Notes: generated from the letters alone by a model not told the origin. Counted from the stretch's first letter, positions 25,907-52,780 are shown. The stretch: 52,780 nucleotides of DNA from an uncultured bacterium (GCA_963695435.1 OY968788.1:1-52780), one strand, 5' to 3'. Translations and numbers: made by a program.

Positions 25907-25958
25907 TTTACCAGGGGTGACAAATCGCCTCGAGTCGAAGTTTTGCCGCATATACAAA

Positions 25959-25967: not shown

Positions 25968-26009
25968 CTTTGATAAATTGAACTGTGCTGGGGGGTAAAA
26001 AAGGGGAAT

Positions 26010-27551: not shown

Positions 27552-28679
27552 ATGAATGAAAGTATTTCTATAAAGGGGGGTGTGGATATCCAAATATCTT
27601 TGGTATTGGATAAATTCAAAACCGCACTAAGTGGGGTGGAAAGAGTAGTTAGTTCAAGAAGTACTTTACCAATCTTGAATAATATATTGATTCGAGCAGA
27701 TAAGAGCGGGGTGGAGGTGGTAGCAACTGATTTGGAGATTGGAATAAAATTTTTCTTGGGCGGTAAGGTGGAACAAGAAGGGGTGATTACGGTACCAGGC
27801 AAGACCCTAATCAATCTAGTAAACAATCTTCACGGCGACACGATTACTCTTACAAGCAAGAGCAATGTTTTGGAAGTGGTGTGTGGAGAAACCAAAGCAA
27901 GTATCAACGGAATGCCAGCAGACGATTATCCTGTTATTCCACAAGTAGAGGGGGGGAAGCAGGTAAAACTAAAGACAGACTTGTTGGCTGGGTTACTTTC
28001 CGCGGTGGAATTTGCTGTTTCGCGAGACGAATCAAGACCAGTACTCACAGGTGTTTCTTTGGTGTCCAAAGAAGGAAAACTAACTGCGGCGGCAACGGAC
28101 AGTTATCGGTTGGGTGAAATAATCGCTGATGTTAATTTGGGGGAAGAGTTTGGGGTGGTAGTCCCAAGTAGAACTTTGCAAGAAGTGCGGAGGATAATGG
28201 GCGAGAGCGAAGAAATAGAGTTGAAGGTGGATGAAAACCAAGTAATGTTTGTTCTACCAAGCGCTAGTATTGTTTCGCGGATCATTGAGGGGGAGTATCC
28301 GCCGTACAAACAAATTATTCCTGCCAACCACACTTTGTCAGCCGAGTTTGATATTCAGGAAATGGCTGATGCTCTAAAGACTGCCGTCATATTTTCATTA
28401 GAAGGTTCCAATAGTGTCAAAATGAATATCAAGGCGGGTGGCGAAATTGAAGTGAGCTCGGAATCGTCTCAACTAGGAAACTTTGTGGCGAAAATTCCAG
28501 CCAAGATTGAGGGTGAGCCAACGGAAATAACTTTCAATGCTCGGTATGTGCTGGACGGGTTGAATAGTTTCGACACCATTAAATGTTCAATGGAGCTGGG
28601 CGGGAAAACATCACCAGGCGTATTTAGGCCTGTGGGAGCGGAAAATCGGCTCTACATTGTGATGCCGCTTAGAAGTTAA
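27552..28679 (+). CDS. dnaN: DNA polymerase III beta sliding clamp
   Basis: The 375-aa protein has three-domain length and the motifs STLPILNNILIRA, ATDSYRL and IIEGEYPPYKQIIP. The exact start codon is uncertain. Confidence 0.9.
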   Translation: MNESISIKGGVDIQISLVLDKFKTALSGVERVVSSRSTLPILNNILIRADKSGVEVVATDLEIGIKFFLGGKVEQEGVITVPGKTLINLVNNLHGDTITLTSKSNVLEVVCGETKASINGMPADDYPVIPQVEGGKQVKLKTDLLAGLLSAVEFAVSRDESRPVLTGVSLVSKEGKLTAAATDSYRLGEIIADVNLGEEFGVVVPSRTLQEVRRIMGESEEIELKVDENQVMFVLPSASIVSRIIEGEYPPYKQIIPANHTLSAEFDIQEMADALKTAVIFSLEGSNSVKMNIKAGGEIEVSSESSQLGNFVAKIPAKIEGEPTEITFNARYVLDGLNSFDTIKCSMELGGKTSPGVFRPVGAENRLYIVMPLRS

Positions 28680-28684
28680 CTTTA

Positions 28685-28768
28685 TTTGTCATCCTCGAGC
28701 CCCGACAAGTCGGGGCGAAGGATCTAAAGAATTATTCATAGATTCTTCACTTTGTTCAGAATGACAAA
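28685..28768. repeat. Compound inverted-repeat element filling the dnaN-recF spacer
   Basis: The left arm is tttgtcatcctcgagc[cccgacaagtcgggg]cgaaggatct (28685-28725). The right arm is agattcttcactttgttcagaatgacaaa (28740-28768). The termini tttgtcat/atgacaaa are perfect complements, and gaaggatct/agattcttc match 8/9. A nested GC hairpin lies at 28699-28716. Confidence 0.7.
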
Positions 28769-28777
28769 ACAACGACA

Positions 28778-29899
28778 ATGAGGATTACAAGAATCCAACT
28801 TCAGCAGTTTAGGAATCTGGAGCAGGTTGAGCTTGCGCCTAGTGAGGGTGTGAATGTTTTGCTTGGGAAAAACGCGCAGGGAAAAACAAATATATTGGAG
28901 GGGATATTTGCAGTTGCCGCAGGCGGTTCTTTTCGGGTGAGTAATGAAAGAGTGTTAGTGCAAAAAGGAAAAGACTTCGCGCGGGCGGAAGTAGATTTTT
29001 CTGATGGGCGAGGTGAGACGAAAAAGGGAGAAATGATTTGGATGATGGAGGGAGGATTTGTCCGCAAAACGGGGAAGTTGAACGGCGCGGCGGCGCAAAG
29101 AGCGGCGATGGTGGGACAAATGCCCGTGGTGCTTTTTTCGCCGGAGGATATTGATCTTATTAGGCTTTCTCCGCAAAAGAGAAGAAGGTTCGTGGACTTG
29201 CTGATAGCGAGATTTGATATGGAATATGGGCAGGACATTTCGGATTATTGGAAAATTTTACGACAAAGGAACCAACTGCTTTTGATGGTAAAGCAGGGTC
29301 GGAGCGAAGAAGCCGAGCTGGATGTTTGGGATGAAAAGTTGAGCGAAACTGGAAGCAGGATTGTGGCGAAGAGACAGAAAGTAATGGAAGAGGTCGGCGG
29401 TTTGGCAAATAAGTATTATCACGAATGGTTTGGGGAATTGGGGGATGAACTAAAAATTTCGTATGTTCCGAATTTGAATTTTGTAACACCAAAAATGTAT
29501 ATGGCGGGGCTTGGGGGAGCGCGGCAAATTGATATTGCGCGAGCGAATACAACCAAGGGAATTCATCGGGACGACCTGATGTTTATTTTAAACGGAAGTG
29601 ACATGCGGGCGGCGGCATCAAGAGGGGAGTTTAGAAGCGCGGTGATGGCGCTGAAATTAGCGGAGGCAGAGATCCTGAAAAGCAAAGTCGGCGAGTCGCC
29701 GGTTTATTTGTTGGACGATATTTTTTCCGAACTAGACGAGGAACGCAGAAAGAAGTTGGCGGATGCCCTAAAGGATGAGCAGGTGTTTATTACCACTAGC
29801 AATGAGACGGTTGGGGGCTTGTTTGAGAACCCCGCCGTGTTTGAGGTGGAGAAGGGAAGGGTTGACCCCGTAGAGAATTTTGGAACAATTCAGGCTTGA
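28778..29899 (+). CDS. recF: DNA replication and repair protein RecF
   Basis: It has Walker A GKNAQGKTNILEG and Walker B YLLDDIFSELD. It lies in the conserved dnaA-dnaN-recF order. Confidence 0.9.
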   Translation: MRITRIQLQQFRNLEQVELAPSEGVNVLLGKNAQGKTNILEGIFAVAAGGSFRVSNERVLVQKGKDFARAEVDFSDGRGETKKGEMIWMMEGGFVRKTGKLNGAAAQRAAMVGQMPVVLFSPEDIDLIRLSPQKRRRFVDLLIARFDMEYGQDISDYWKILRQRNQLLLMVKQGRSEEAELDVWDEKLSETGSRIVAKRQKVMEEVGGLANKYYHEWFGELGDELKISYVPNLNFVTPKMYMAGLGGARQIDIARANTTKGIHRDDLMFILNGSDMRAAASRGEFRSAVMALKLAEAEILKSKVGESPVYLLDDIFSELDEERRKKLADALKDEQVFITTSNETVGGLFENPAVFEVEKGRVDPVENFGTIQA

Positions 29900-30063: not shown

Positions 30064-30507
30064 ATGTCGGCAAATGCTGCAGAGGCGGTGCCGGTGACGA
30101 ACCCGGCGAATGTACCTGAAATAATAGTTGGCAAGGTCTACGAACTGGAAATCAAGCCGATTTCCCAGGGGGAAATTGACGCCGCCAGTAGGTTGTTTCG
30201 CGATAATAACCCCGTCCACCCGAAAGGAGTGGTTCAGGAAGCGCTGCTTCAAGGGGTCATCGCTGGAGCGATTTACGGGTGGATCGATGGCTCTTCGCTT
30301 CGGGCTAGACATATTGTAAAACAGGAGACCCACGGGGTTTACCCGTCCAAAAACCGCACAGTCTTTCGCAACACGGCGGTGCAGCTGAAGGCGAAAGTGG
30401 TAGAACTAGAGCCCGGTCAGGTCAAGATAGAATTCGAGGTCTGTCGCCCGGCTGACGGTCTGGTACTCTACTGCGGATGGGTGAGAGGATCGGCTGCTAC
30501 GGTCTGA
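30064..30507 (+). CDS. Small hotdog-fold (MaoC dehydratase-like) protein, tentative
   Basis: The 147-aa protein has FRDNNPVHP, which resembles the D-x-N-P-x-H hydratase motif of MaoC-like proteins. The size fits a single hotdog domain. The gene looks somewhat GC-richer than its neighbours by eye. Confidence 0.4.
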   Translation: MSANAAEAVPVTNPANVPEIIVGKVYELEIKPISQGEIDAASRLFRDNNPVHPKGVVQEALLQGVIAGAIYGWIDGSSLRARHIVKQETHGVYPSKNRTVFRNTAVQLKAKVVELEPGQVKIEFEVCRPADGLVLYCGWVRGSAATV

Positions 30508-31489: not shown

Positions 31490-32131
31490 TTAGGTGCCTC
31501 GTTTTGATGGGCTGTAAATATCTAAATACTCGAGAGCATTTATGAGAATCTTGTGTAGGGAGGCGTCTGTTATTTTGGGGTCTAGTGATTTTTTATGGGT
31601 GGTATCGTTTCTCCATCTGTTGAGTGTAGATAGGTCGGTGTATATCAAAAATGGTGCTAGGTTCTCTTTTGCAAATTTGATTTTTCCCTCAAAATTCCCA
31701 AACTCACAGAGCAGAGTATGTAGCTTGGCGTCGATAGACGACACCCTTGGTCTGCGGGATGTTTTTTTGATGTTTTTAGGGACAAAGGAGTTTGCAAGTT
31801 GATTAGCAATCCACCCATCCAAATACTGTTCTATAACGAAGTGAGTTAGAATGACGCGAGTTTTTAATAAAGCTTTTTTGTATAAGGTGGTGTGGGGTGC
31901 CTCCTCAATACTTTGTATAATTTTTTCAGTTTGGTGGATTCTGCTTTGGATAGTTTTTGGAGCGGACAGCTTTGAAGATAGGGGAAGCTTGTTAATTTTT
32001 TCTTTGACTTCTTCAGAAAGCTCGTCCCAACCCTTTTTATCTCCAATTCCAACTAACATTACTAAATGGTATAGTGCCGCAAGAGCTTTCTTGTTCTTAT
32101 TGATGATTCTAGTTTTGTTCAGGGGCTTCAT
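31490..32131 (-). CDS. Hypothetical all-helical protein with a candidate HEPN-type RNx3H motif
   Basis: The 213-aa protein has a helix-favouring composition. The single motif RWRNDTTHKK (R-N-x3-H) lies near the C-terminus. The start overlaps the polA stop by 4 nt. The gene is AT-richer than its neighbours by eye. No family was recognised with certainty. Confidence 0.35.
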   Translation of the reverse strand: MKPLNKTRIINKNKKALAALYHLVMLVGIGDKKGWDELSEEVKEKINKLPLSSKLSAPKTIQSRIHQTEKIIQSIEEAPHTTLYKKALLKTRVILTHFVIEQYLDGWIANQLANSFVPKNIKKTSRRPRVSSIDAKLHTLLCEFGNFEGKIKFAKENLAPFLIYTDLSTLNRWRNDTTHKKSLDPKITDASLHKILINALEYLDIYSPSKRGT

Positions 32132-40747: not shown

Positions 40748-41449
40748 CTAGTTGCCGTAGTTGGGGAGGATGTTGGGGAGGCCGTAGATTGTGCCGCCTC
40801 CAGTATTAGGCGTGGCGAATTGAGGTTTTGAAACTTTAACCAACCCGCCGGAAGGGAATTCCATTAGCACCCATTGGGTAGCTTCGGCAACGATCTGGGC
40901 TTGGTAGTTTTTTTGGTAATTAGTGTAAGCATTGGGGTCGCTGATTGGGGGATAGGCAAGGCGGTCTTGCATCCAATTGGTTTCTACCCCAGTTTTTTTA
41001 TCGAAACTCTTGATACTTTCGTTGGGGAAAATCACCAAAATATTAGTGCCCTTGGAATACCACATTCTTCCGCCATCCTGGTAGGCATAATACAAATCAC
41101 TGGCGATGGGAGGGACCAAGTCGGCCAAAATGTCGTTGGTGTTCGTGGGGGTGGTGGGGGTGACGGGGGAGAATTGGGTGCCACCGATTAAGTTTGAAGA
41201 AATGATCGCATCTTTCATTATTCCGCTGGGGTCAGTAGGCCATTTGATATCCAAAAACTTGCCAGTAAAACTGGGGGAGCTGTTGTCTTCTGGTTTTTGT
41301 AGGATCGACAGAATAGTATTTTGCTCTTCGGTGCTAAGACGGCGTTCGGACTGGGCGGGAGAAGCGAGCTTGGTCAACGCTGGAACCGCTTCGGCGACAA
41401 TAAGACCGAAGAAAATCATTGCGATAAAGATGTGACGAAGTTTTGGCAT
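40748..41449 (-). CDS. Secreted or membrane-anchored hypothetical protein (last gene of the T4SS-like operon)
   Basis: It has the N-terminal hydrophobic anchor MPKLRHIFIAMIFFGLIVAEAVPA and lies 54 nt downstream of the PilB-like gene on the same strand. Its stop codon directly abuts the valS stop codon. Confidence 0.5.
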   Translation of the reverse strand: MPKLRHIFIAMIFFGLIVAEAVPALTKLASPAQSERRLSTEEQNTILSILQKPEDNSSPSFTGKFLDIKWPTDPSGIMKDAIISSNLIGGTQFSPVTPTTPTNTNDILADLVPPIASDLYYAYQDGGRMWYSKGTNILVIFPNESIKSFDKKTGVETNWMQDRLAYPPISDPNAYTNYQKNYQAQIVAEATQWVLMEFPSGGLVKVSKPQFATPNTGGGTIYGLPNILPNYGN

Positions 41450-41503
41450 AAAGAAAAGCGGTTAGGTTTTCCGCCCCTTTTCCCCTCCAGCCTGATTATA
41501 TCA

Positions 41504-43159
41504 CTAGACCCCTTCGTCACCGCCGACTGCGCGGAAGAGTTCGTCTAGAGAAGTGGTGCCTTCAATTACTCTAACTAACCCATCTTGGGCAAGGGTTTTC
41601 ATGCCTTGAGCGATAGCCAGTTTTCCAATTTCGCTGGCGCTAGCGTTCTCATTGATCTTGGTTTTGATTTCCGGAGTTGTTCGCAGGACTTCGAAGATAC
41701 CGATACGGCCGCTGTAGCCAGTGCCATTACATTCATCACATTTACCAGCACGGTAAAGTTTTTCAACTGAAGCGTCGGGAGAGATGGCTTTGATTTTCCC
41801 CAATTCTTCGCTTGTTGGCGAATAGGATTCTTTGCATTTGGGGCAAAGTCGGCGAACAAGTCGTTGGGCGATGATCAGACGAAGAGCATCGGAGAATAGT
41901 TTTGGTTGAGCGCCAAGCTCGACAAGCCGGGGGACGGCTCCGGAAGCATCATTGGTGTGTAGGGTAGACAAAACTAAGTGTCCGGTCAGAGAGGCATCCA
42001 CTGCGATTTCAGCAGTTTCTTTGTCGCGAATTTCCCCAACTAAAATAATGTCAGGGTCTTGGCGGACAATGGAGCGCAGAGCATTGGCGAAAGTGTAATC
42101 CTCTTCGTTGTTGACTTGAGTTTGGGTGATGCCTTGAAGGCGGTACTCCACGGGATCTTCGACTGTGATAATTTTAGAATCCGGCTTATTGATAGTATTC
42201 AAAATCGCGTAAAGGGTAGTGGTTTTACCCGAACCGGTAGGACCGGTGTTGAGGATAAGACCATTGGGTTCGCGGATAGCGGTTTCAACCCAAAGTTTTA
42301 CTTCGGGCGAGAAACCGATTTCGTCTAAACTAATGAAATGTCCTTCCTGCGGGAGTAGTCTTAGAACTGCAGACTCGCCGTATTGGGTGGGAAGAATGGA
42401 AACACGAATGTCGTAAGTGGTTTTGGGAGTGCGGATTGAGAAGCGACCGTCTTGCGCACCTTCGGTGATGTTGAGTTTTAGTTGAGCCAACATTTTGATG
42501 CGGTTTATCAGGGGGTCGAGTTGGGTGTTGGGGAGTTCGGCAATGTCTTGGAGGACGCCGTCCAAACGGTAGCGCAGGCGGAGCTTTTCTTTGGTCGGTT
42601 CGATGTGGATGTCGGAAGCATTCATGCCAGCGGCGCCGGCAAATATAGTTTCAGTCAGCTCGCTTGTTGAAGCGGTGGTGAGCACTGCCTGAAGCTCTTT
42701 GATGTTAGTTAGCTTAGAAAATTTTGCTTGCAGTTCGGCGCTGATGTTTATGTCATCAACTTTGGTTTGGGTGGGGGAGAAGGTGTCGTATACTCCCAAT
42801 AAATACTTCATTGTGGAAGGCGACACCAGCACGGGCTTGAACTCGAATTCATCCATTGCGGACAATTTCTTTAGGGCATCGATAGTCTTGGGGTCTTCCG
42901 GGTTGGCGATGGCGAGCGATACTACGGTACCGTCTTTTTCGTAGGCAAAAATGTTGGCAGAATTAGCGAGATCTTTGGAGACAATCCCGACAGCTGAAGG
43001 GTTCGGCTGAAAGCCGGTCAGATTTTGGTAGACAAGGTTTAGCTCTCCAGCTCGCTTCTGGGTGTATTCTTCTTCCTTCTTCCGCTGGAGGTTAGTTACA
43101 AACTGATCCATCGGAGCGTGGTCATCAGAAGGGTTGGGTTGGAGGTTCTGATTAGTCAT
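41504..43159 (-). CDS. GspE/PilB-family secretion ATPase
   Basis: It has Walker A GPTGSGKTTTLYA, the Asp box ITVEDPVE, Walker B DPDIILVGEIRD, the His box TGHLVLSTLHTNDA, and the tetra-Cys motif CPKC...CDEC. Confidence 0.9.
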   Translation of the reverse strand: MTNQNLQPNPSDDHAPMDQFVTNLQRKKEEEYTQKRAGELNLVYQNLTGFQPNPSAVGIVSKDLANSANIFAYEKDGTVVSLAIANPEDPKTIDALKKLSAMDEFEFKPVLVSPSTMKYLLGVYDTFSPTQTKVDDINISAELQAKFSKLTNIKELQAVLTTASTSELTETIFAGAAGMNASDIHIEPTKEKLRLRYRLDGVLQDIAELPNTQLDPLINRIKMLAQLKLNITEGAQDGRFSIRTPKTTYDIRVSILPTQYGESAVLRLLPQEGHFISLDEIGFSPEVKLWVETAIREPNGLILNTGPTGSGKTTTLYAILNTINKPDSKIITVEDPVEYRLQGITQTQVNNEEDYTFANALRSIVRQDPDIILVGEIRDKETAEIAVDASLTGHLVLSTLHTNDASGAVPRLVELGAQPKLFSDALRLIIAQRLVRRLCPKCKESYSPTSEELGKIKAISPDASVEKLYRAGKCDECNGTGYSGRIGIFEVLRTTPEIKTKINENASASEIGKLAIAQGMKTLAQDGLVRVIEGTTSLDELFRAVGGDEGV

Positions 43160-44444
43160 TTTTAGAATTGATTTTAACGGTTGCGGTGTAGGGTTTGCCG
43201 TCCCAGCTGGCTGCCTTCGATTCGTTGGTCAGACTGAAGGGGCCACCTGTCTTTACTTTAGCAGAAAAATAGATTTCGAACCGATTGGTGGCGCGGGTAG
43301 TCTTCAGATTCAGACTGGGGAGCCAAGTATCTTCTAATTTTTCCGGAGTTTGGTGGTTGTCATAGAAAATTTTTCCGCTTCCGGCAACATATTCCAGCCC
43401 CTCTGGCAGGATATCGGAGACGGAGAAGTCTTTGCTGTCACTTTCGAGATTGGTGGTTTCTATAGAAAGGTAGAAGTCTATTTGGTCGGAGGTTTCAGCA
43501 AAAACCTGGGTACTCCAAACATTATCGGCACTGGCGCGACCAAGCACAAAGATATTACAAATAGTACAGTTCGCGGGAGGCTGCTCGGAGTCGTAGGAAT
43601 TTTCGGGGAGGGTAACCCGAACATAGACTTTGTCGGACAAACCATTGAATTGGTTCGGTTCGTAGGCGGTTGCAACATTCTCCCAACTGCCGACTCCTAT
43701 GGTGGTGATAGAGAAATTGATTTCCACGGTTATGTTCGTGTCGCTTGGTCTGACATTGATCACATAGCGCCCGAGCAGGGCGGGGGTTAGTCTAGTTGCG
43801 GTGGAATTGTTGATTTCAATTGTTCCTGTGAAGTCGCGGAAGACATCGGGCAGTTTATCTTCGATGACGAGGGTGTGGTTGCCGCCAAGGTTTTCGGCTT
43901 CCATCCGAATTCGGAATTGGATAGTGCTTCCGACGGGAACGGTTACAAAATGAACTGGCTTACCGCCAACGAGTGCGGTCTTGGAAAGATTATTGATAAC
44001 CAACTTTTGAATAGTCGTGGTGGTCTCGGTTGGTTTTACTGGTGCCAGTCCGCCCTCATTGGGGTTGTTGGGGTTTGTCCCGCGTGTGTTCTCGATTCCG
44101 TCCGAAACACCATCACCATCAGTGTCGGGGTTGGTGGGATCAGTTCCTAAAATAGCTTCTAGATCATCAGAAAGCCCATCCCCATCGTGATCACTTGCGC
44201 CTGTAGGGCGGGGGGTAACATGCGAAGTGGTATTGGGTTGAAAGGTTCCATTTTCTTTATCTTTGGCGAGAGCGACAAGGATAGGATTGATAAGATCGGT
44301 TTGGCGTTCTTCGGCCGTGCGGCTGCCCCAGCGTTCCTCTATCCCAGAAGTCTCCCGAACAAATGTAGCAGCTAGCACCGCGACTAATACCACGATGCCT
44401 ACTGTCCCCCAAAAGGCGACTCCTAAAGCGTTGAAGGAGCGCAT
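43152..44444 (-). CDS. Membrane-anchored surface protein with thrombospondin type-3-like calcium-binding repeats and beta-sandwich repeat region
   Basis: An N-terminal TM helix is followed by DHDGDGLSDDLE and DTDGDGVSDGIE repeats. Two similar beta-rich segments follow (VTVPVGSTIQFRI... and DQIDFYLSIETTNL...). There is an 8-nt overlap with the PilB-like start. Confidence 0.55.
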   Translation of the reverse strand: MRSFNALGVAFWGTVGIVVLVAVLAATFVRETSGIEERWGSRTAEERQTDLINPILVALAKDKENGTFQPNTTSHVTPRPTGASDHDGDGLSDDLEAILGTDPTNPDTDGDGVSDGIENTRGTNPNNPNEGGLAPVKPTETTTTIQKLVINNLSKTALVGGKPVHFVTVPVGSTIQFRIRMEAENLGGNHTLVIEDKLPDVFRDFTGTIEINNSTATRLTPALLGRYVINVRPSDTNITVEINFSITTIGVGSWENVATAYEPNQFNGLSDKVYVRVTLPENSYDSEQPPANCTICNIFVLGRASADNVWSTQVFAETSDQIDFYLSIETTNLESDSKDFSVSDILPEGLEYVAGSGKIFYDNHQTPEKLEDTWLPSLNLKTTRATNRFEIYFSAKVKTGGPFSLTNESKAASWDGKPYTATVKINSKND

Positions 44445-44446
44445 GA

Positions 44447-46237
44447 TTAACCTCCTGTGAGGTTACGCAATTCGGCCAGCTGGCTGGGGTCGGAAGTTAC
44501 AATACGGTCTTCGATGAAGCTCGCGACTACTTTGATAGCGGCGTGGTTGGTACCAGCGAAGAAGAGACCTTCACCAACATTGGATTCGAGCAAGAGGAAC
44601 TTTTCGCCTTGAGTTAGATTGAAAGTTTCCGCCACAATATCTATAGAGGCGGGGGATTGGCGAAGCAAAAGCTGAAGCGAAGAGTTCGCAACCACAGCCT
44701 TCCCATATTTTGAGCCAAGGAAGTCCTCGATATCTTGAGTAATAGTGGTGAGCCCTAAGAAATACTTGCGGGCGCGTTTGGCGATAGAGTAAAGGAATTT
44801 GGCGGAGTCTTCGTACTGCATCAAAATCCACGCCTCATCAATTACAAGCATTCGCTTTTTGATATCAAAACGAATTTTATTCCAAATGTAATTCAGAACC
44901 ACATACATCGCGATGGGGCGAAGGGTATCTTCCAAATCGCGGATGCTGAAAACCATCAAACCACGGTCCAGTTCAAAGTTGGTTGGTTGGTTGAAGACTC
45001 CAGCGAAAGTGCCGGTGGTGTATTTGGTCAGGCGCAAGGCCAGACTTTCGGCGCCAGTCATATTGCTTAAAACATTGTGTAGATCCTGCATGGTCGGAGC
45101 GGCATTTTGATGAGTTTTGATGTCGCCAGTAACATCGCGCAGGGCGTAAGTTTCCATCAGCGCTTTTTCCATCAAAGCTTCCTCTTCTGGCGTGAGTTTG
45201 CCTAACATCAAATTCATCAACCCCATGAGGGTGATGACTGATGCACGGAGAATTTTCTCTCCATCGGCGTTGGTGCCAAGGTTGGGCAAATCAAACGGGT
45301 TGATTCGCTTTTCACTGTTGAGGCTCACTGAAATGTAGCTACCGCCAACGGCATCCGCCAGCGCTTTGTATTCGTTTTCGGGGTCAACCACGATGACATC
45401 GGTATCGAACATCATACTGCGCAAAATTTCCAACTTCACGGCGTAGGATTTACCACCACCGGATTTGGAGAAGACCACCATGTTGGCATTTTCTAATTCA
45501 AAACGGTCGAACAAGATTAGTGAATTGTTGTGGCGGTTGATGCCATACAGCACACCTTTGCCGGTAGTGAGATCAACGGAAGTGAAGGGGAAGGTGGTGG
45601 CGACGGATGAGGTGGTCATGTTGCGAATCACATCCAATTCGTCTAGCCCTAAGGGTAGACTGGAATTGAATCCTTGCTCCATTTGGAGGAGTGCCTGTTT
45701 GGTGTAGACTAGCTGACCACCCAAGACGGTTTCAAGGTGACTAGTAATGCTATTCAACTCTTCTTCGGTTTTGGCATAAACGGTGAAGTAAAGAGCGTAG
45801 TGGAAGAATTTTTCAAGGCCTCGTTGGAGGCGGTCGCGAAGTTCTTCGGCGTCTTGGTAGGCAATATCCAATTCGGGATCGCGAATGGCACCCTTCTCTT
45901 CGTTGATGCGAAGGCTGGATTCCATTTCGCCAACTTTTCGGCGGAGTACCCGCATAATGTTGGCGTTGTCCACGGGGTAGATATGCATTGAAATATCAAT
46001 ATTGGTGTCGTAGTTGATGAGGGGAGCGAGCCAGTTGGTTTCGATGTATTGAGGGTAGGTCAATACGAAGAAGCTACGGACAAATTTGTCGTTTAGCATC
46101 AGGCGATCGCTCTTTATTTCCATGGCGGCGGGAGCGATTAGATCGCGAACAGAAACCAAGCCACTTTCAAATTGCTCAACAGCCTTTTTGGCGGCTTCCT
46201 CTTCGGCGGTCTGAATTTTTTTCTTTTTTCCAAACAT
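44447..46237 (-). CDS. VirB4/PrgJ-like type IV secretion ATPase
   Basis: The Gram-positive VirB4-type N-domain reads DLIAPAAMEIKSDRLMLNDKFVRSFFVLTYPQYIETNWLAPLIN. It has Walker A FSKSGGGKSYAVK and Walker B MLVIDEAW. Confidence 0.85.
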   Translation of the reverse strand: MFGKKKKIQTAEEEAAKKAVEQFESGLVSVRDLIAPAAMEIKSDRLMLNDKFVRSFFVLTYPQYIETNWLAPLINYDTNIDISMHIYPVDNANIMRVLRRKVGEMESSLRINEEKGAIRDPELDIAYQDAEELRDRLQRGLEKFFHYALYFTVYAKTEEELNSITSHLETVLGGQLVYTKQALLQMEQGFNSSLPLGLDELDVIRNMTTSSVATTFPFTSVDLTTGKGVLYGINRHNNSLILFDRFELENANMVVFSKSGGGKSYAVKLEILRSMMFDTDVIVVDPENEYKALADAVGGSYISVSLNSEKRINPFDLPNLGTNADGEKILRASVITLMGLMNLMLGKLTPEEEALMEKALMETYALRDVTGDIKTHQNAAPTMQDLHNVLSNMTGAESLALRLTKYTTGTFAGVFNQPTNFELDRGLMVFSIRDLEDTLRPIAMYVVLNYIWNKIRFDIKKRMLVIDEAWILMQYEDSAKFLYSIAKRARKYFLGLTTITQDIEDFLGSKYGKAVVANSSLQLLLRQSPASIDIVAETFNLTQGEKFLLLESNVGEGLFFAGTNHAAIKVVASFIEDRIVTSDPSQLAELRNLTGG

Positions 46238-46914
46238 TATTGTCCCTCCGCGTCGCGAACATTACGAATAATCGAGACATCTACATTGCTGACGGAAAAT
46301 AGTTTTTGCCGGCGGGCGGAATCGGTATTGTAGCTGGTGTAAAAAAGCTCGATTAGCTCTTGAGTATTGAGCTGAACATTGTTCAGCCCAAGACTGGCTA
46401 ATCCGTTTGATACCAAACTAGTTTTTTCGGTAATGGCGGTTTTGACTTCTTCAAATTGAGCGTTGGGAGTGTTCTTTTTTCTGCCAAATAGGTGGAATCC
46501 AGCGGAGATAATAGGCGCCTCGTTGTGTGGGACGATGACATAAAAAGTCTTACTCATAATGTTGGCAACGCCGACTAGATCGCGGACGAAAGTGATGTAT
46601 TCGTTGGTTTGAGTGCGAAGCAAATCGTTAGTCTGTTTGATGGAGGCTTGGTTGAGGGTCTCCAAATAAGGCGCCAAGTCGAGGGTGCGGGACTGCATCA
46701 CTATCTGGATAGGGAAGGAAAGACCATTAAGAAAGCTCTGGTAACCTTCCAGCAATGCCTGCTGCTCATCGGCAGATTTCAGGCTGAAGTTGATGGCGTT
46801 GACCATCAAGATAGTACGATAACCGCCGTTTTTCAAAAGCACTATCCCGTCACGGATTTCCTGAACGGGTAGGAATTTTTGAGTGCTTTTGAATTTTGAT
46901 TGTTTGCGCGCCAT
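46237..46914 (-). CDS. Hypothetical protein of the T4SS-like operon (225 aa)
   Basis: It has a 1-nt overlap with the VirB4-like start. The segment LPVQEIRDGIVLLKNGGYRTILMVNAINFSLKSADEQQALLEGYQSFLNGL loosely recalls N-terminal regions of Gram-positive conjugation ATPases. That similarity is an unverified impression. Confidence 0.45.
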   Translation of the reverse strand: MARKQSKFKSTQKFLPVQEIRDGIVLLKNGGYRTILMVNAINFSLKSADEQQALLEGYQSFLNGLSFPIQIVMQSRTLDLAPYLETLNQASIKQTNDLLRTQTNEYITFVRDLVGVANIMSKTFYVIVPHNEAPIISAGFHLFGRKKNTPNAQFEEVKTAITEKTSLVSNGLASLGLNNVQLNTQELIELFYTSYNTDSARRQKLFSVSNVDVSIIRNVRDAEGQ

Positions 46915-46923
46915 ATTGGTGAA

Positions 46924-47454
46924 TTATTCTACATCTTTGAGAACATCTTCGATGTCCGCTGGTTCGGTTTTGATTGGTGGGGGAGTAAAAGTATTGATAG
47001 AAGTGGTCATAGATTCTTCTTGCTCCCGATTAATTGTACCACCCGTATCTAAGATGTGAGCGAGCTGTTCGATTTGCATTTTGACTTGTTTGCCGGACCG
47101 ACGATCGGCAAGTTCAGTTTTGGTATCTTTGAGGTCGGTTGCTTTAACTTTAATGGCGCCAACTTTTTCGCGAGGCTCTTTGTGCCAAATAAGATTCTTG
47201 GCGCTGGTCGTAAAGTGGAGCAGATTCGTTAGAAACAGCCCAAACGGGCGACCATTGATATTGCCAAACGCCAGCATCAATACGAGTCCTCCTATCAGTA
47301 GGCTGACAATGACAAACCAGAACCAGTTGAGAAACGACTGGTAGGCGATGAAGATAACTGCTCCACCTCCAAGCAAATAAAGGAATTGCTTTAGGGTAAG
47401 CGGACCAATCAGCTTATCTTCGCGGGTAACATCTTGTGGGATTTTGGTTGCCAT
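46924..47454 (-). CDS. PrgI-family (VirB3-like) small membrane protein
   Basis: The N-terminus EDKLIGPLTLKQFLYLLGGGAVIFIAY plus a second TM helix matches the PrgI-family pattern as recalled. Its position between the VirB6-like and VirB4-like genes mirrors the prgH-prgI-prgJ order. Confidence 0.65.
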   Translation of the reverse strand: MATKIPQDVTREDKLIGPLTLKQFLYLLGGGAVIFIAYQSFLNWFWFVIVSLLIGGLVLMLAFGNINGRPFGLFLTNLLHFTTSAKNLIWHKEPREKVGAIKVKATDLKDTKTELADRRSGKQVKMQIEQLAHILDTGGTINREQEESMTTSINTFTPPPIKTEPADIEDVLKDVE

Positions 47455-47468
47455 AAAAGTTATTTAGG

Positions 47469-50195
47469 TTAGCCTTGTTCGCGTATGATTTTAGTTAAGC
47501 CGACTATGCCAGTATGAATCCTGCTTAGGTAGGCGTCACCGTTATTAGTGAAAGCTGCTCCCGGCATGTCCACCCGATTTCCGAATTTATTGAATAGGTT
47601 AGCTAGGGTTTGTTGGGATGTTGGGCTAAGATCAACCAGACGCGTGTTGGTGGAGGTTTGCCCGGGGCCGAGATTCTTGATGACTTCTTCGAGGGAATTT
47701 AAGGCGCTAGTTACTTCACTGGAGAAGGAGGTAATATCGAAATCAGGTTTGGCAATGGTTGCCTTTAATGACTGAATACCGGGCTGGGCAGCACCAATGT
47801 CTCCGGTGGTTTCTCGGATGGTTTTGATCTCGGTTGTTTTGGTGGAAATTTTGTTGTCGAGATCGCTTAGAGCGTTTTTGCTAAGGATATCTTTCATTGC
47901 TCCCTTGGCGCTGTCAGAAAGGTTGGCAGACAGTAATGACTGTATGTTAGACAGGCTTTCTGGGGCAAAGCCTTGTTTTACAATAGTTTGGGCAAGCTCT
48001 TCGGCACCTGCTCCGCCGTAACCTAAAGCTTCTCTTACGCTATTGGCCTTGTCGTCGTCGGAGAGGGAGCTGCCGCCTAATATTTCTTTAAGTTTATCTT
48101 GGGTATCTTTACCGTTAAGACGGTCGTGTTGCTCCGCACTAAATTGTCCAAGGGCATTGAGATCGCCTTTGTTGAGGGAGACAACCTGCCCAGCATTTAA
48201 AGATTGGGTCAGCCCATTTAGAGCATTGACTAAATTGTCGCCGGCTTGCTGTTCAAAGACGGCCTCGTTGTTGGCGCTTGGGTTAGAAACTTTAAGGTCG
48301 TCGTGGAGAGACTTCATCTTCTCAAGTTCTCTTTGGGCTTTGAGTTCTTGTTCAAAAGCTGGTCCGCTACCTGAATCTTCGGTTTGCCCGCCTCTGCGCA
48401 ATTGGTCTAACGAGAATTTTCTTGGCATACCTGCGTCGCGGAAGAGACTTTGGTTGGAACTAACGAGATCGTTGAAGTAGTCCATTGCTTCTTCTGCCTG
48501 TTCTTTGCGCAAGCTTACGGAATACCTTCTCAATACCTGGGAAAGCACCATCATATCGAAGGCGGCTTCCTTATCGTCAGGGTTAGCTTTCAATTTGCCG
48601 ATGGCATCTTTCAATTTTTCTGCTACATCTGCCGAAGGGAACTGTTTTTCGAGTTCATCTGCAACAGTTTCGTTGATTGCTCCCATAAACATCTTTTCGG
48701 ACTCGGCTGATCTTTGCCCGAGGGCGGTGTTTTCCAGACCCTTTCTCGCATTTTTTACCTGTTCTTTGCGATTTTTCTTTTCTTGATCGTCTGGCGCGGA
48801 GTTGATCCACTCCTCTGTGCTTATGTTGATGCCAATTTTGGCTCTGACTGCGAGTTCAACATTTTTATTATCAGCTTGGTATCTATCGGAAACAGCCCTG
48901 TTTACAGTAGCTGCATCTTCTTTTTTGCCGATGCCCTGTTGAGCCTTTATTTCTTTTTCGCGTTTGCCGCGTACAGCGACAACCTTGTCATATGCGGCGC
49001 GGCCCCAGGCGGTGCCCCTGATTCCTTTTCGCAGCATGTCTTTGCCTCGGGCGGAAAGATCGGCTTTGATTGGTTTCCATGCCATTTCAGGAAGTTTGTC
49101 GGTGAAGAATTTGGTCATGGCGGAGACGGGAACTTTCAGTAGGGCAGGGGTATTCCCGGCGGCGATTAGGACACCCAAACAGATAATCAAATACATGATG
49201 CTCCCGACATTTGTCGTGGACACATCATTTATCCCGCCGACAACAAAAAGGCGGGTACTAAGAAATTGCTGGAGAGCCTCCACGGAGTTGAAGGGCGCGA
49301 TTGCCTTGGCTACGCCTATCAAGATAAATGTGACAGGAAGAACTAATATCCATCTAATTACATCCGAAAACCAATTACTATCTCCAATTTGAATAGCTTT
49401 TTCAGGGAGAACACCAAGGACGGCTTGGATGGGAGCAAAGATGGTTAGAATTGCTAGTCGGATAGCTCGTTCTATTAGTACAAAAGTTAGACGGTAGAGT
49501 ATCCATACGATAATTGCCTGAAATGCCATGGCAGTGAAGGAGGCAAAGAGGTACTTGAAGACGCTAACATCTCCGTTCACGAGGACATTTACATTCAGTA
49601 AAGTACCGAACTGGCTGATCCAAGTAGAGAATGTGCCGGTTGAACTTGCGTCTAAACCGGGGAGATGGGAAGCGGAGTTGCGGAGGGCATCACCAGCTTC
49701 GATCAATATTTGTACTAGTTGGTAGCTGATGTTGGCGAGAGCTATAGCGGTGATAAGAGCAATAACTGCCTTTTTGAAGTTGTAACCGGTTCGACGAATG
49801 ATAATCATAACGGCGAAGACTAGTAGGATGGCAAAAAATAGCCCGTTTGCGATGTTGAGCATCACATCATAAGCAATCTTTAGCTGTCCCACCTGATCGC
49901 CGTTCCCGAAGAATAAACTATTTTGTCCTGGGAGAACCAGATCATTGATAATCCAGATAAATAGATTTGATACACCGGTCAGCACCATGCTGATAAAGGA
50001 GAACAGAGTGCCGAGTATTGCTTTCAGAAGGCTTCGCCCGGATACATAATCGATAACATCTTCCCACCATGGCGCTGCTAGTACGATACGGCCATATCCA
50101 ATCAGGGCAAGTGTCGCAAAAGTCCCACCTAGCCATTTAGGCCAGTGGGGATGTTTGGTGGTGAAGGTTGTAATAAAACTAATGAAGCGCTTCAT
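47469..50195 (-). CDS. Large polytopic membrane protein, VirB6/PrgH-like, with a ~500-aa hydrophilic C-terminal extension
   Basis: The first ~400 aa contain about 7 hydrophobic segments. The rest is charged and helical with no TM segment. It is the first gene behind the consensus promoter. Confidence 0.5.
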   Translation of the reverse strand: MKRFISFITTFTTKHPHWPKWLGGTFATLALIGYGRIVLAAPWWEDVIDYVSGRSLLKAILGTLFSFISMVLTGVSNLFIWIINDLVLPGQNSLFFGNGDQVGQLKIAYDVMLNIANGLFFAILLVFAVMIIIRRTGYNFKKAVIALITAIALANISYQLVQILIEAGDALRNSASHLPGLDASSTGTFSTWISQFGTLLNVNVLVNGDVSVFKYLFASFTAMAFQAIIVWILYRLTFVLIERAIRLAILTIFAPIQAVLGVLPEKAIQIGDSNWFSDVIRWILVLPVTFILIGVAKAIAPFNSVEALQQFLSTRLFVVGGINDVSTTNVGSIMYLIICLGVLIAAGNTPALLKVPVSAMTKFFTDKLPEMAWKPIKADLSARGKDMLRKGIRGTAWGRAAYDKVVAVRGKREKEIKAQQGIGKKEDAATVNRAVSDRYQADNKNVELAVRAKIGINISTEEWINSAPDDQEKKNRKEQVKNARKGLENTALGQRSAESEKMFMGAINETVADELEKQFPSADVAEKLKDAIGKLKANPDDKEAAFDMMVLSQVLRRYSVSLRKEQAEEAMDYFNDLVSSNQSLFRDAGMPRKFSLDQLRRGGQTEDSGSGPAFEQELKAQRELEKMKSLHDDLKVSNPSANNEAVFEQQAGDNLVNALNGLTQSLNAGQVVSLNKGDLNALGQFSAEQHDRLNGKDTQDKLKEILGGSSLSDDDKANSVREALGYGGAGAEELAQTIVKQGFAPESLSNIQSLLSANLSDSAKGAMKDILSKNALSDLDNKISTKTTEIKTIRETTGDIGAAQPGIQSLKATIAKPDFDITSFSSEVTSALNSLEEVIKNLGPGQTSTNTRLVDLSPTSQQTLANLFNKFGNRVDMPGAAFTNNGDAYLSRIHTGIVGLTKIIREQG

Positions 50196-50221
50196 TGTTT
50201 GTTTTTGATTTTTGTTACTTT

Positions 50222-50250
50222 ATTGTAGCAAAAAAATCGGATTTTGTCAA
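50222..50250 (-). promoter_or_regulatory. Near-consensus sigma70 promoter driving the T4SS-like operon
   Basis: On the minus strand: TTGACA (50245-50250), a 17-nt spacer, then TACAAT (50222-50227). An A-rich 26-nt leader runs to the ATG at 50195. Confidence 0.7.
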
Positions 50251-50295
50251 CCCCAAGAGGATTGGTTGCTACCTCTCGTCAGAGGGAGGGGACAA

Positions 50296-50304
50296 TGGCA
50301 TAAT
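50296..50304 (+). promoter_or_regulatory. Candidate extended -10 (TGgCATAAT) for the divergent PEGA gene
   Basis: tggcataat lies at 50296-50304, 42 nt upstream of the ATG at 50347. The -35 element is weak. Confidence 0.35.
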
Positions 50305-50346
50305 GGGTGTAGTTTACAAATGGCCTAAAAAATGCTGTAGTCTTTT

Positions 50347-51804
50347 ATGATTGATGAGCAAAAAAGCCAGTCTGGGGGCGAAAAAACGCCAGAGCAACAA
50401 TTAGCAGAATTGCTTCGACAAAGCCAGAACAAACCCGCTCCTGCTAAGGAAATGGGTCTGAATTTGAATTTTCCTAGTCGAATGCCGCGGAAGCAGACCA
50501 AAATTAACTGGCTGGCGGTGGGGATTAGTATGCTTGCGCTGGTGCTGGTGTTCGGAACTGGTTATTTTTTGCTGGTAGGGCTCAAGTTCAATACGGGGGA
50601 GCTGACTTTGGAACTGAATGAGTCATCCGTCAGACTAAAAATTGATGATAAGTCGGTTGGGACAATAGACACCAACTATATGGTTTCGCTTCGGGCGGGC
50701 GAACATACGCTGATATTGGCGAAGGATGGGTTTCTGGAATTGGAAAAGACAATTACGATTGCCCGCGGTGACAAAACACTGATGAGTTTGCAACTATTAC
50801 CAATCCCCACAATTGATAAATTGGTGGATGGGAATATTGCGTATGCTCGGTTGAACCATAGTGGTGCGGAAGTGTCCTATTTTGATAGAAATGACCGTGC
50901 GTTCAAGTCTACTAATACTGGCGAAAACAAAGTTGCCACACTCTTCCGCGGTAGTTTTGATAGTGTGAGCGATGTGGTGTGGTCGCCGGTATCGCAGGCG
51001 GCAATTGTGAAGCTGCCCGGGCAGCCTAGCTTTAAAAATATGCAGGATAATCGGGAAGTAAAAGGGCGATATGTTGTGTTGGGTGAACGGCCGACACAGG
51101 GTGCCACAAAGTACATTGGTACTAGCACCTGGCTGTTTGACGATAGCCTAAAAACATCCAAAGGGTGGCAGCCAATAAGGCTGAATGACAATATAAGACA
51201 AGTAGCTTATAGCAGTGATGGTTCGGAGATTGTTTATGTTTACGATACGGCTGACGGAGAATATTCCTTGGTTAGAGCGCTCCCAAGCGGAGAAGAATGG
51301 GAGCGGGTAATTGTTGATTTGCCGCAACTTACAGACGCAAAATTGTTTTGGGGAGCGGATGATAGATATCTTTTGATCGAACAGTCGGACAAATTGTTGT
51401 TGGCTGATTTGGTAGCCAAATCGATTAGCGAAATAGCTCAAGATAGGGTGAGTGGGAGTCGGTATGCGATGTCGCAAGATGGTGCTAATTTGGCATACAT
51501 TGCGGATGTGAGCGGGCAACCTCGGCTGAAGATTTTTGAGCTAGCGACGGGAGCAGTAAAGGTTATTGATAAAGTGGAAACGGTCTCAAGCGGGACGGTG
51601 ATGACTTGGTTGAGCGCTAATGACATTTTGTTGGTGGAGCCAAATCAAACTTTTGTGCGAATAAATATTAGTAACAACGATCGAACTACAATTCCGTTTG
51701 TGGGGCAGGAAACCAATTTGCAAATTAGCGCGATGGAATACAGCCCGGTGGGACAAATATTGATGCTAACAACTGCCACCGGGATTTTTGTAATGAAAAT
51801 CTAG
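50347..51804 (+). CDS. Membrane-anchored PEGA-domain protein with a C-terminal beta-propeller-like (TolB/PD40-type) region
   Basis: A TM helix (LAVGISMLALVLVFGTGYFLLVGL) is followed by a PEGA-like segment (VSLRAGEHTLILAKDGFLELEKTITIARGD). Repeated beta-strand-rich units follow (AYSSDGSEIVYVY..., AMSQDGANLAYIA..., EYSPVGQILMLT). Confidence 0.6.
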   Translation: MIDEQKSQSGGEKTPEQQLAELLRQSQNKPAPAKEMGLNLNFPSRMPRKQTKINWLAVGISMLALVLVFGTGYFLLVGLKFNTGELTLELNESSVRLKIDDKSVGTIDTNYMVSLRAGEHTLILAKDGFLELEKTITIARGDKTLMSLQLLPIPTIDKLVDGNIAYARLNHSGAEVSYFDRNDRAFKSTNTGENKVATLFRGSFDSVSDVVWSPVSQAAIVKLPGQPSFKNMQDNREVKGRYVVLGERPTQGATKYIGTSTWLFDDSLKTSKGWQPIRLNDNIRQVAYSSDGSEIVYVYDTADGEYSLVRALPSGEEWERVIVDLPQLTDAKLFWGADDRYLLIEQSDKLLLADLVAKSISEIAQDRVSGSRYAMSQDGANLAYIADVSGQPRLKIFELATGAVKVIDKVETVSSGTVMTWLSANDILLVEPNQTFVRINISNNDRTTIPFVGQETNLQISAMEYSPVGQILMLTTATGIFVMKI

Positions 51805-52780
51805 ATGGCAGAGGGCGACCAAAAGAAATCGTCGAGGCAAGCAATCGCTCACCTGCAGCAGAGAGTGAAAGATTTGTTGTTGGCAAAAAAACTACCTAAA
51901 AAAGCGGTAGACGAAATATTAGAATCGCTGGGAGAGATTGTCAAAATAGTGACAGAGGCGGAGGGATACCGAAGGAGAAACAGCGACGATTTGGCGGAAA
52001 ATCGTGAGGCGGTGGCTAGAAAGAAATTGGATGAGGCAGAGAAGGATATTGATGAAAAAGTAAGACAGCAAGAGGAAGAACCAACCGAAGAAGAGGAAGA
52101 AGAAACAGAGGAACCGCAAGAGAGACAAAGAAAAAAAGACCAAAAGAAAAAAGTCGAAGAGGCGGAGAAGATAAGAAAACAAATTCAACAAAAGTCCAAA
52201 GGCAAAGCTCCGGTTAAGGTTGGCGGTGGCGGTGCAGCTGGTGGCGGTGTGGCCGGTGGCGGTGCAGCAGCTGGTGGTGCTGCGGCGGGTGGAGGTAGTG
52301 TGGGTTTGATAGTGGCCATAATAGCAATTTTACTTATTATAGTAATCGCTTTATTTATGTATTTTGGCGGAGTGGCACACAAAGCTTTCAATGAAGGCGG
52401 TGGCTCATTCCCGATATCAATGGATTACGACAACCCTGAACACCAAGTATTGGCGGGGGAAGTGATGAGGTTAAAAAATGCTGGGGTGTTGGTTTTTAAA
52501 GACAGGCTGGAAAAAGATATCGAGTGGGTGGATGTAGAAGGGAAGATGACGATGAATTTGGACTGGCGGATTATGGTGACGCTTAGGTATTTGGGTGAGA
52601 AGTGGGAGAGGCGAAGCGAGGGGGTGCTCGGAATAAACTTGAGTACGAGCAATGGGCCGGATACAACTCGCCGAGGGGTGGCGGTAAAAATCGCGGGGAT
52701 AGCGTTGGCTGACCAAAGAGAAGAACCGTTAGACGCTCCCAGCGCGTATGCAACTGGGCAGGCAATTGGGATTAGCCAAA
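51805..52780 (+). CDS. Hypothetical membrane protein, 3'-partial: charged coiled-coil, Gly/Ala-rich tract, one TM helix, then a globular domain
   Basis: The gene is absent from the ORF track because it has no stop in the window. The ATG at 51805 directly follows the TAG of the PEGA gene. The frame is uninterrupted for 325 codons: MAEGDQKKSSRQ...EEPTEEEEEETEEPQERQRKKDQKKK...GGGGAAGGGVAGGGAAAGGAAAGGGSVGLIVAIIAILLIIVIALFMYF... Confidence 0.55.
   Translation, partial: MAEGDQKKSSRQAIAHLQQRVKDLLLAKKLPKKAVDEILESLGEIVKIVTEAEGYRRRNSDDLAENREAVARKKLDEAEKDIDEKVRQQEEEPTEEEEEETEEPQERQRKKDQKKKVEEAEKIRKQIQQKSKGKAPVKVGGGGAAGGGVAGGGAAAGGAAAGGGSVGLIVAIIAILLIIVIALFMYFGGVAHKAFNEGGGSFPISMDYDNPEHQVLAGEVMRLKNAGVLVFKDRLEKDIEWVDVEGKMTMNLDWRIMVTLRYLGEKWERRSEGVLGINLSTSNGPDTTRRGVAVKIAGIALADQREEPLDAPSAYATGQAIGISQ

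Follow-up and report, generated by a model that had tools for sequence, protein, structure and literature searches.

Positions 40,748 to 52,780 of a 52,780-nucleotide stretch of DNA from an uncultured bacterium (GCA_963695435.1 OY968788.1:1-52780; the whole stretch is hereafter called the window) encode the core of a type IV secretion system (T4SS). We consider it highly probable that this locus is an intact, chromosomal and vertically inherited T4SS of the kind typical of Patescibacteria (the candidate phyla radiation, CPR), that it resides in a bacterium of the Kazan-3B-28 lineage, and that it was derived from the conjugation machinery of monoderm bacteria (mating-pair formation class FATA, MPF-FATA). 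The source organism is an ultra-small member of the Kazan lineage of the CPR. The promoter and the core genes of the locus are the following (aa, amino acids).

50222-50250, minus strand: sigma-70-type promoter, TTGACA-17-TACAAT with an extended -10 TG, heading the operon and matching 11 of 12 consensus positions
47469-50195, minus strand: extended VirB6-like protein, 908 aa, with an N-terminal polytopic domain and a hypervariable C-terminal half
46924-47454, minus strand: PrgI/VirB3-like membrane protein, 176 aa (Pfam PF12666 PrgI)
46237-46914, minus strand: TrsD/TraC-like protein, 225 aa, a free-standing homolog of the VirB4 N-terminal domain (NCBIfam, Pfam)
44447-46237, minus strand: VirB4-family ATPase, 596 aa, comprising a linker and the C-terminal P-loop domain (NCBIfam, Pfam and PDB matches)

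The 596-aa protein scored 396.6 bits (E = 2.2e-118) against the NCBIfam model conju_CD1110, whose cutoff is 325, and also matched Pfam P-loop_TraG (8.4e-26) and, among PDB sequences, VirB4 of 4AG5 (E = 8.5e-45) and TrwK (7e-09). It carries a Walker A (GGGKS) and a Walker B (VIDEAW) motif. The 176-aa protein has hydrophobic segments at residues 19-63 and matched Pfam PF12666 at 1.8e-09, with 38.5 bits relative to a cutoff of 27. An initial annotation of this DNA had called these two proteins VirB4/PrgJ-like and PrgI/VirB3-like, and both calls are upheld by profile matches above cutoff and, for the ATPase, by the Walker motifs. The 225-aa protein, which the same annotation had left as an unknown, could be identified: it aligned to positions 2-153 of conju_CD1110 and positions 97-280 of VirB4_plasma (both NCBIfam), had an NCBIfam match to TrsD/TraD (1.9e-05) and a precomputed Pfam match to PF26593 TraC-like, and is also a separate 225-aa open reading frame (ORF) in related genomes. 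Because it is a homolog of the VirB4 N-domain, the 225-aa and 596-aa proteins jointly span a full canonical VirB4, and judging from the sequence VirB4 is split in two in this bacterium, into the N-domain-like TrsD and the 596-aa ATPase.

The 908-aa protein comprises a polytopic domain (approximately residues 1-363) and a hydrophilic C-terminal half of about 545 aa. It had no direct Pfam or NCBIfam match, a Pfam search at E ≤ 10 with nine of its homologs also gave nothing relevant, and neither did a profile search of PDB sequences. A profile of residues 1-363 retrieved 2729 proteins at E ≤ 0.001 from a set of 1.84 billion representatives, and among the 150 matches listed most were 800-1000 aa long and matched at their N-terminus. 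Pfam TrbL/VirB6 was found in 13 of 46 more remote homologs of this domain (best E 1.6e-08); in the one remote homolog for which both were displayed, the TrbL match and the profile match cover the same region. An AlphaFold2 model of residues 1-363 (pLDDT 86, pTM 0.79) had as its top Foldseek matches in the PDB the R388 TrwI/VirB6 chains 7o3v, 8rtd and 8rt9, with probabilities of 0.93-1.00, TM-scores of 0.42-0.47 over approximately 290 columns and E-values of 0.015-0.21. Via these remote homologs and the predicted structure we accept the 908-aa protein as probably an extended VirB6-like protein, and the VirB6/PrgH-like polytopic protein that the initial annotation had proposed is thus backed indirectly.

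Orthologs of the 908-aa protein are only 31-34% identical to it in genomes where VirB4 is 94-95% and leucyl-tRNA synthetase (LeuRS) 84-86% identical, and the divergence is uneven, the membrane domain retaining 44-45% identity, as against 21-27% for the C-terminal half. The hydrophilic C-terminal half (listed at 47469-48557) is the fastest-evolving part of the neighborhood. A lysine- and arginine-rich stretch follows the last transmembrane (TM) segment (net charge +10 in 73 residues) and, by the positive-inside rule, hints that the C-terminal half may begin in the cytoplasm. Known examples of extended VirB6 proteins are TraG of the F plasmid and RvhB6 of the Rickettsiales. A review (PMC12857230) describes extended VirB6 proteins that carry one large hydrophilic domain or several, and the 908-aa protein likewise has a polytopic VirB6-like domain followed by a large hydrophilic domain. 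In contrast to these proteins, however, its C-terminal half diverges extremely fast (21% identity where VirB4 is 95% identical), and beyond the membrane domain it has no detectable sequence similarity to them.

The locus contains five further features, three of them in the same gene array as the core and two transcribed divergently from it.

43152-44444, minus strand: membrane-anchored surface protein, 430 aa, a candidate adhesin with TSP3-type Ca-binding repeats and an N-terminal TM segment
41504-43159, minus strand: PilB/GspE-type assembly ATPase, 551 aa, with an MshEN-type N-domain and a tetracysteine motif (Pfam, NCBIfam)
40748-41449, minus strand: signal-anchored or secreted protein, 233 aa, last gene of the operon, no family
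50347-51804, plus strand: membrane-anchored protein with PEGA and beta-propeller-like domains, 485 aa, divergent from the operon
51805-52780, plus strand: 681-aa membrane protein, of which the first 325 residues are in the window; its gene abuts the PEGA gene and runs off the window end

Seven intact minus-strand ORFs (908, 176, 225, 596, 430, 551 and 233 aa) occupy positions 40748-50195, encoding in this order the VirB6-like protein, PrgI, TrsD, VirB4, the TSP3 protein, PilB and the 233-aa protein. The VirB6-like and PrgI genes are separated by 14 bp, PrgI and the 225-aa gene by 9 bp, VirB4 and the TSP3 gene by 2 bp, and pilB and the 233-aa gene by 54 bp; the 225-aa gene overlaps VirB4 by 1 bp and the TSP3 gene overlaps pilB by 8 bp. 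The promoter (50250-50222) is the top-scoring site of the region, where the total of promoter-like sites equals the shuffle expectation, and it lies 27 bp 5' of the first start codon; its hexamers are kept 5' of the orthologous gene in two relatives (loci L002 and L003). These features lead us to predict that the seven genes form one promoter-headed operon. The arrangement agrees with the initial annotation in its near-consensus promoter heading a minus-strand array, in the coordinates of the ORFs and in the prgH-prgI-prgJ-type synteny, as the VirB6-like, PrgI and VirB4 genes follow one another in that order.

To examine the distribution of the locus, relatives of VirB4 were collected by a scan of one genome per species, which gave 220 loci, and the best 80 of the 220 were compared, with synteny counted by tblastn of the window proteins against them. 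Nearly all of these 80 were labeled as metagenome-assembled genomes (MAGs) of Patescibacteria, with VirB4 identities of 52-95%, and the closest named relatives belong to candidate division Kazan, including a complete genome (CP011216) at 82%. PrgI, TrsD and VirB4 are encoded side by side in approximately 70 of the 80 loci, across many Patescibacteria groups. The whole order, with PEGA divergent from VirB6-like, PrgI, TrsD, VirB4, TSP3, PilB and the 233-aa protein, followed by LeuRS and TsaD genes pointing toward the array, recurs in loci L001-L012, CP011216 among them, and in these Kazan-clade loci the order extends past the tRNA synthetase and TsaD to FemAB. Conservation of gene order across related genomes, which had been proposed as a check on the annotation, is found for the triad and for the whole order. 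In many other loci dnaA/dnaN lies at most 10 kb from virB4. As the housekeeping order is conserved among genomes whose proteins are 45-95% identical, the locus has been inherited vertically as part of the core genome and is not a mobile element.

Systems of this kind have been reported before. A region encoding VirB4, VirB6 and PrgI, a putative T4SS, was reported from TM7x (Nanosynbacter lyticus), most Saccharibacteria and further CPR lineages (McLean 2020, PMC7427843). Transposon sequencing (Tn-seq) of Southlakia epibionticum ML1 identified the cluster SEML1_0006-0019 as essential during growth on the host (Wang 2023, PMC10633639); this cluster is most like Gram-positive conjugative T4SSs, its pilin genes are essential, it has no recognizable coupling protein or relaxase, and the authors proposed that it serves protein export or "an alternative capacity." A survey of the phylum (Quiñonero-Coronel 2025, PMC12102498) placed most VirB4s in a distinct clade that shares ancestry with MPF-FATA, with TrsD as the most abundant associated component and PrgI and VirB6 also associated; VirB8 and VirB1 were rare, VirB2-like pilins common and relaxases almost absent, the locus was near dnaA in many classes, and the genome table includes Kazan-3B-28 genomes with VirB4. 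A review from 2025 adds the Patescibacteria systems to the T4SS superfamily as new members (PMC12857230). The initial annotation had regarded the locus as a candidate uncharacterized machine and as the most likely undescribed system in the window. Its own inferences (no conjugation, a chromosomal site near oriC, host contact) match the published view of this same system, which is therefore not undescribed, having been known since 2020 and reported as essential in a cultivated relative in 2023.

With the other T4SSs of the Patescibacteria clade the Kazan locus shares an MPF-FATA-related VirB4 with TrsD encoded immediately upstream, PrgI/VirB3, a VirB6-like protein, a chromosomal and origin-proximal position without a nearby relaxase or type IV coupling protein (T4CP), and probably nearby VirB2-like pilin genes, the last seen for the Kazan locus in relatives only. 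The difference lies after virB4, where the Kazan clade encodes the TSP3/DUF11 protein, PilB/GspE and the 233-aa protein, whereas S. epibionticum has peptidase and lysozyme homologs at this position (PMC12102498). The pilin genes are also arranged differently: Kazan-clade relatives have one or two of them approximately 5 kb upstream, across the divergent PEGA/681-aa pair, rather than an in-cluster array of six. Essentiality is known only for S. epibionticum ML1 (PMC10633639). Conjugative MPF-FATA systems of the pCF10/pGO1/pIP501 type share with the locus the order prgH (VirB6-like), prgI (VirB3-like) and prgJ (VirB4), a TrsD-like protein as in pGO1, and a monoderm architecture without VirB7, VirB9 and VirB10. 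In contrast to these systems, a relaxase, a T4CP (PcfC), a VirB1-like hydrolase (PrgK), a VirB8-like protein (PrgL/PrgD; TraM) and a PrgB adhesin were not found in the window, and the Kazan cluster lies off mobile elements and has an extra PilB ATPase. VirB2-like pilins occur in the Kazan relatives, whereas Gram-positive conjugative systems are without them.

The chromosomal setting of the cluster was examined across the window, which is ordinary chromosome with the T4SS genes situated among conserved housekeeping genes. An origin region at 23908-29899 contains jag/R3H, yidC, yidD, rnpA and rpmH on the minus strand and dnaA, dnaN and recF on the plus strand; dnaA itself is at 26010-27392 and the operon is 13-24 kb distant from it. 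The sole perfect DnaA box (25959-25967) lies 43 bp 5' of dnaA. The total of DnaA boxes in the window equals that expected by chance, and the grouping of 6 of the 11 matches at 25959-27890 is supportive and not decisive. The cumulative GC skew climbs steadily from approximately 26 kb on. Pfam scans identified DNA polymerase I, Fpg, a MurE-like ligase, FemAB, TsaD and a class-I tRNA synthetase among the other genes of the window, which further encodes polynucleotide phosphorylase, RNase J, uracil-DNA glycosylase, FtsK (alpha and gamma domains), RecA and a polysaccharide gene cluster. The rpmH-rnpA-yidD-yidC and dnaA-dnaN-recF flanks and the housekeeping neighbors bear out the earlier placement of the locus in the core chromosome near oriC rather than on a mobile element.

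This setting bears directly on whether the cluster might serve to move DNA from cell to cell, as the mating-pair-formation module of a plasmid remnant or an integrated conjugative element. The VirB4 score exceeds the cutoff that NCBIfam sets for the CD1110 "conjugal transfer" ATPases, and PrgI and TrsD take their names from conjugative plasmids. However, Pfam scans of all large ORFs in the 52.8-kb window found no relaxase, VirD4-type coupling protein, VirB8-10, PilC, prepilin peptidase or integrase, and the one FtsK-like protein carries the alpha and gamma domains of FtsK; nor does the window contain a tRNA gene that could provide an attachment site, an Rfam family match or repeats. Likewise, no homolog of VirB7, VirB8, VirB9, VirB10 or comEC is present in the window, and none of the nine proteins of the locus contains a VirB1-like hydrolase domain. 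The list of components that the initial annotation had reported missing from the window holds for all large ORFs. That annotation had also allowed that a relaxase and VirD4 might lie just past the window, and in a relative whose VirB4 is 94% identical neither was found over the 10 kb that follow the VirB6-like gene. On its flanks the cluster has housekeeping genes whose order is conserved where the proteins are only 45-95% identical, and the survey detected relaxases in just 103 Patescibacteria genomes, with 15 of 109 relaxase genes near virB4 (PMC12102498). A role in conjugation is very unlikely, and we give very little credence to the view that the cluster belongs to a conjugative element.

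The absence of VirB1, VirB8, T4CP and relaxase genes from the window would also fit an ancient conjugation system that has lost its function and is in decay. However, all seven ORFs are intact, VirB4 is better conserved than LeuRS, the promoter is conserved, the triad of PrgI, TrsD and VirB4 is retained in many Patescibacteria classes, and the homologous cluster was essential in Tn-seq (PMC10633639). Because of these conservation data we exclude decay, to which we attach hardly any probability at all.

A further possibility is that the cluster takes up DNA or nucleotides in the manner of Helicobacter ComB or archaeal Ced, feeding a cell unable to make its own nucleotides. The locus and ComB are both chromosomal and both lack a relaxase and coupling protein, VirB4 has a weak NCBIfam match to CedB (2.3e-12), a PilB-type ATPase is encoded in the operon, and S. 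epibionticum owes its natural competence to type IV pili (PMC12857230). Conversely, ComB is a diderm system that needs VirB7-10, which are absent from the window, whereas the Kazan locus is of the monoderm type, and the CedB match is far under cutoff and is explained by the shared P-loop fold. In S. epibionticum, moreover, deletion of comEC abolished competence and left viability intact, whereas the T4SS cluster is essential (PMC12857230), so that the requirement for the T4SS is not via ComEC-dependent DNA uptake. We therefore consider an uptake machine improbable. The initial annotation had argued for a housekeeping role rather than conjugation, suggesting DNA or nucleotide uptake or host-cell contact; the latter is the role favored in published work, while uptake via ComEC is disfavored by the comEC result.

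The divergent pair upstream of the operon was as initially described, a PEGA/beta-propeller gene and the gene of a Gly-rich membrane protein. The PEGA protein matched Pfam PEGA (7.4e-07) and, weakly, beta-propeller families, and has a TM segment at residues 58-76; most Kazan-clade loci that reach that far keep its gene in synteny with the operon. The 681-aa protein has a charged N-terminus, a Gly/Ala-rich tract, one TM segment (residues 166-184) and an external domain, and its ortholog in locus L003 had no informative Pfam or PDB match. In the relative with 94% identical VirB4, the 10 kb beyond the VirB6-like gene begin with the PEGA, 681-aa and 157-aa membrane protein genes, continue with a cytidine/deoxycytidylate-type deaminase, a 77-aa ORF and a 111-aa pilin, and end with a solute-binding protein, a nucleoside triphosphate transferase, HSP20 and a SpoIID-domain protein, the last being approximately 9 kb upstream in locus L081.

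The 111-aa protein is a TrbC/VirB2-type pilin (Pfam T4SS_pilin 1.2e-08, TrbC 1.4e-07), encoded at L003:805-1140 on the plus strand, which is the same gene as L081:4591-4926. The adjacent 77-aa ORF (L081:4280-4513) has two hydrophobic stretches and no family match. A pilin is also present in L002 and at L005:242-571, the latter with a second pilin-like match at L005:6-200. No VirB2-like pilin was found by tblastn of the window. The pilins of the relatives are situated approximately 3.5 kb past the PEGA gene, which by synteny corresponds to a position approximately 2.5 kb beyond the window end, and the window is probably without a pilin because it stops short of that position. The earlier statement that no pilin is present is thus true of the window, but the window ends too early for it to describe the locus, as close relatives have VirB2/TrbC-like pilins.

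Downstream of virB4, the 430-aa protein matched Pfam TSP3_bac (2.7e-14), in agreement with its earlier description as a Ca-repeat surface protein, and has a TM segment at residues 6-24 as well as weak NCBIfam matches to RrgB_K2N_iso_D2 and DUF11, pointing to DUF11/isopeptide-like beta domains. Its plan is constant in all Kazan-clade loci checked, comprising a TM anchor, a RETSGIEERW-like motif and Asp-rich TSP3 repeats, and the proteins end in one or two beta-rich domains, which vary from genome to genome. A sequence search of the PDB with the TSP3 and 681-aa proteins found no hydrolase or other known domain. We suggest that this variable slot after virB4 is a candidate adhesin.

The 551-aa protein has Pfam matches to T2SSE (1.6e-119) and MshEN (1.9e-08), which sustain the call of a PilB/GspE ATPase; its NCBIfam scores for GspE (491.6 bits) and PilB (469.7 bits) are both under the equivalog cutoffs. 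Every Kazan-clade locus that extends over this gene has it at the same place in the operon. Among all large ORFs of the window there was no match to the type IV pilus or type II secretion partners PilC, PilD, PilM or a pilin.

PilB-type genes were also observed in two other settings. In locus L083 (contig NODE_21, 148,628 bp; positions 1-17770) a PilB 48% identical to that of the window keeps the downstream tRNA-synthetase-TsaD-FemAB-Mur ligase block, and the upstream genes differ: it is preceded by an unannotated 1892-aa protein, and a similar ORF of 1904 aa is found downstream of virB4 in L033. In a Berkelbacteria MAG (L026, 14858-18308), the region downstream of virB4 contains five ORFs of 103-120 aa, of which three match a VirB2-like pilin, and the run directly adjoins a convergent PilB-type ATPase gene, providing a second, independent linkage of PilB and T4SS.

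Whether PilB works with the T4SS is evenly balanced in our judgment. It is feasible that PilB and the genes that follow it stand outside the T4SS, PilB being the extension motor of a type IV pilus encoded elsewhere that was placed here by gene packing in a genome of approximately 0.6 Mb. The full GspE/PilB architecture with its MshEN N-domain and tetracysteine motif is consistent with such a motor, as is the L083 PilB, which keeps the tRNA-synthetase-TsaD-FemAB side with other genes upstream. In S. epibionticum the type IV pilus and T4SS are distinct essential loci (PMC10633639), a further point in favor of separation. The 8-bp overlap with the TSP3 gene, the operon position held in all Kazan-clade loci covering PilB, the absence of PilC, PilM and prepilin peptidase genes within 52 kb, and the PilB gene of L026 that adjoins a VirB2-like pilin run all argue the other way. 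MPF-FATA systems are not known to have a VirB11-type ATPase, which would also favor a separate PilB. A more far-reaching idea is that the Kazan lineage and its neighbors have a hybrid machine, in which PilB/GspE would serve as a working third T4SS motor that replaces the missing VirB11 or coupling ATPase or drives assembly of the VirB2-like pilus, and in which the hypervariable C-terminal half of VirB6, together with the TSP3/DUF11 protein, would determine host specificity; we regard this hybrid as rather unlikely.

The 233-aa protein encoded by the last gene of the operon had no Pfam or NCBIfam match. It has 38 homologs, and both of those named by organism are from candidate division Kazan. 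An AlphaFold2 model built with 29 homologs had a pLDDT of 71 overall and approximately 90 for residues 110-215, with low confidence in the N-terminal half. The protein was considered as the sole candidate for a VirB8-like component and this was rejected: a Foldseek search found no PDB structure at E ≤ 0.001, and among the 50 matches listed there was no VirB8.

Several observations concern the window outside the T4SS locus. A cell-envelope cluster on the minus strand (16709-23324), between holA and the origin genes, encodes a VanW/PG_binding_4 protein, two GT4 glycosyltransferases, a Wzy-type polymerase/ligase, a Wzx-type flippase and a methyltransferase. No Pfam family was found for the ORFs at 7918-8913 (plus strand, 331 aa, with an N-terminal TM segment or signal sequence), 30064-30507 (plus strand, 147 aa) and 31490-32131 (minus strand, 213 aa). 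Positions 1-4100 have a G+C content of 73%, and the remainder 47-50%, with the change occurring within 100 bp at approximately 4100. This junction falls inside a single ORF (3514-5082, minus strand) in which RecA (Pfam RecA and RecA_C, residues 12-320) is in-frame with a high-GC PD-(D/E)XK nuclease fragment; the high-GC segment also encodes a major facilitator superfamily transporter and an acyltransferase. It looks like an assembly chimera with Actinobacteria-like DNA, a real transfer being less likely.

Returning to the T4SS, we propose that VirB4, with TrsD giving its N-terminal domain in trans, would dock on a channel of PrgI/VirB3 and VirB6 at the cytoplasmic membrane, and that VirB4/TrsD would energize the assembly of a conduit spanning the monoderm envelope. 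This conduit probably also builds a VirB2-like pilus, the genes for which lie just beyond the window in relatives. The machine would act at the site of contact with a host cell, most likely in protein export or otherwise in another form of host exploitation, and not in conjugation, and the fast-evolving C-terminal half of VirB6 and the variable surface protein would be its likeliest host-specific parts. Both the mechanism and the role in growth on a host are inferred by homology to the S. epibionticum system found essential in Tn-seq.

Several points weigh against our interpretation of the locus as a Patescibacteria T4SS of this function. The putative function is carried over from one cultivated Saccharibacterium, a substrate is known for no Patescibacteria T4SS, and the host-associated lifestyle of the source organism is itself putative. 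As to components, the homology of the 908-aa protein to VirB6 is indirect (no direct Pfam match, Foldseek E 0.015), the pilin was observed in relatives and not in the source window, and a VirB8-like or VirB1-like component was not found in the window.

A large part of bacterial diversity belongs to the Patescibacteria, most of which seem to live on other cells. The locus described here is a compact, fully syntenic Kazan-clade version of a known system and no new system. In the portions of the text and supplements of PMC12102498 accessible to us, there is no mention of PilB, T2SSE, PEGA or TSP3, and in the accessible portions of that survey and of PMC7427843, PMC10633639 and PMC12857230 we found no description of an operon-embedded PilB, a fast-diverging VirB6-like protein or a variable adhesin-like slot. 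What the Kazan-clade locus offers are three leads, namely the PilB-type ATPase embedded in the operon, a VirB6-like protein that outpaces every neighboring gene in its divergence, and a variable, membrane-anchored Ca-repeat protein, and these three proteins are candidate parts for the recognition or engagement of the host.

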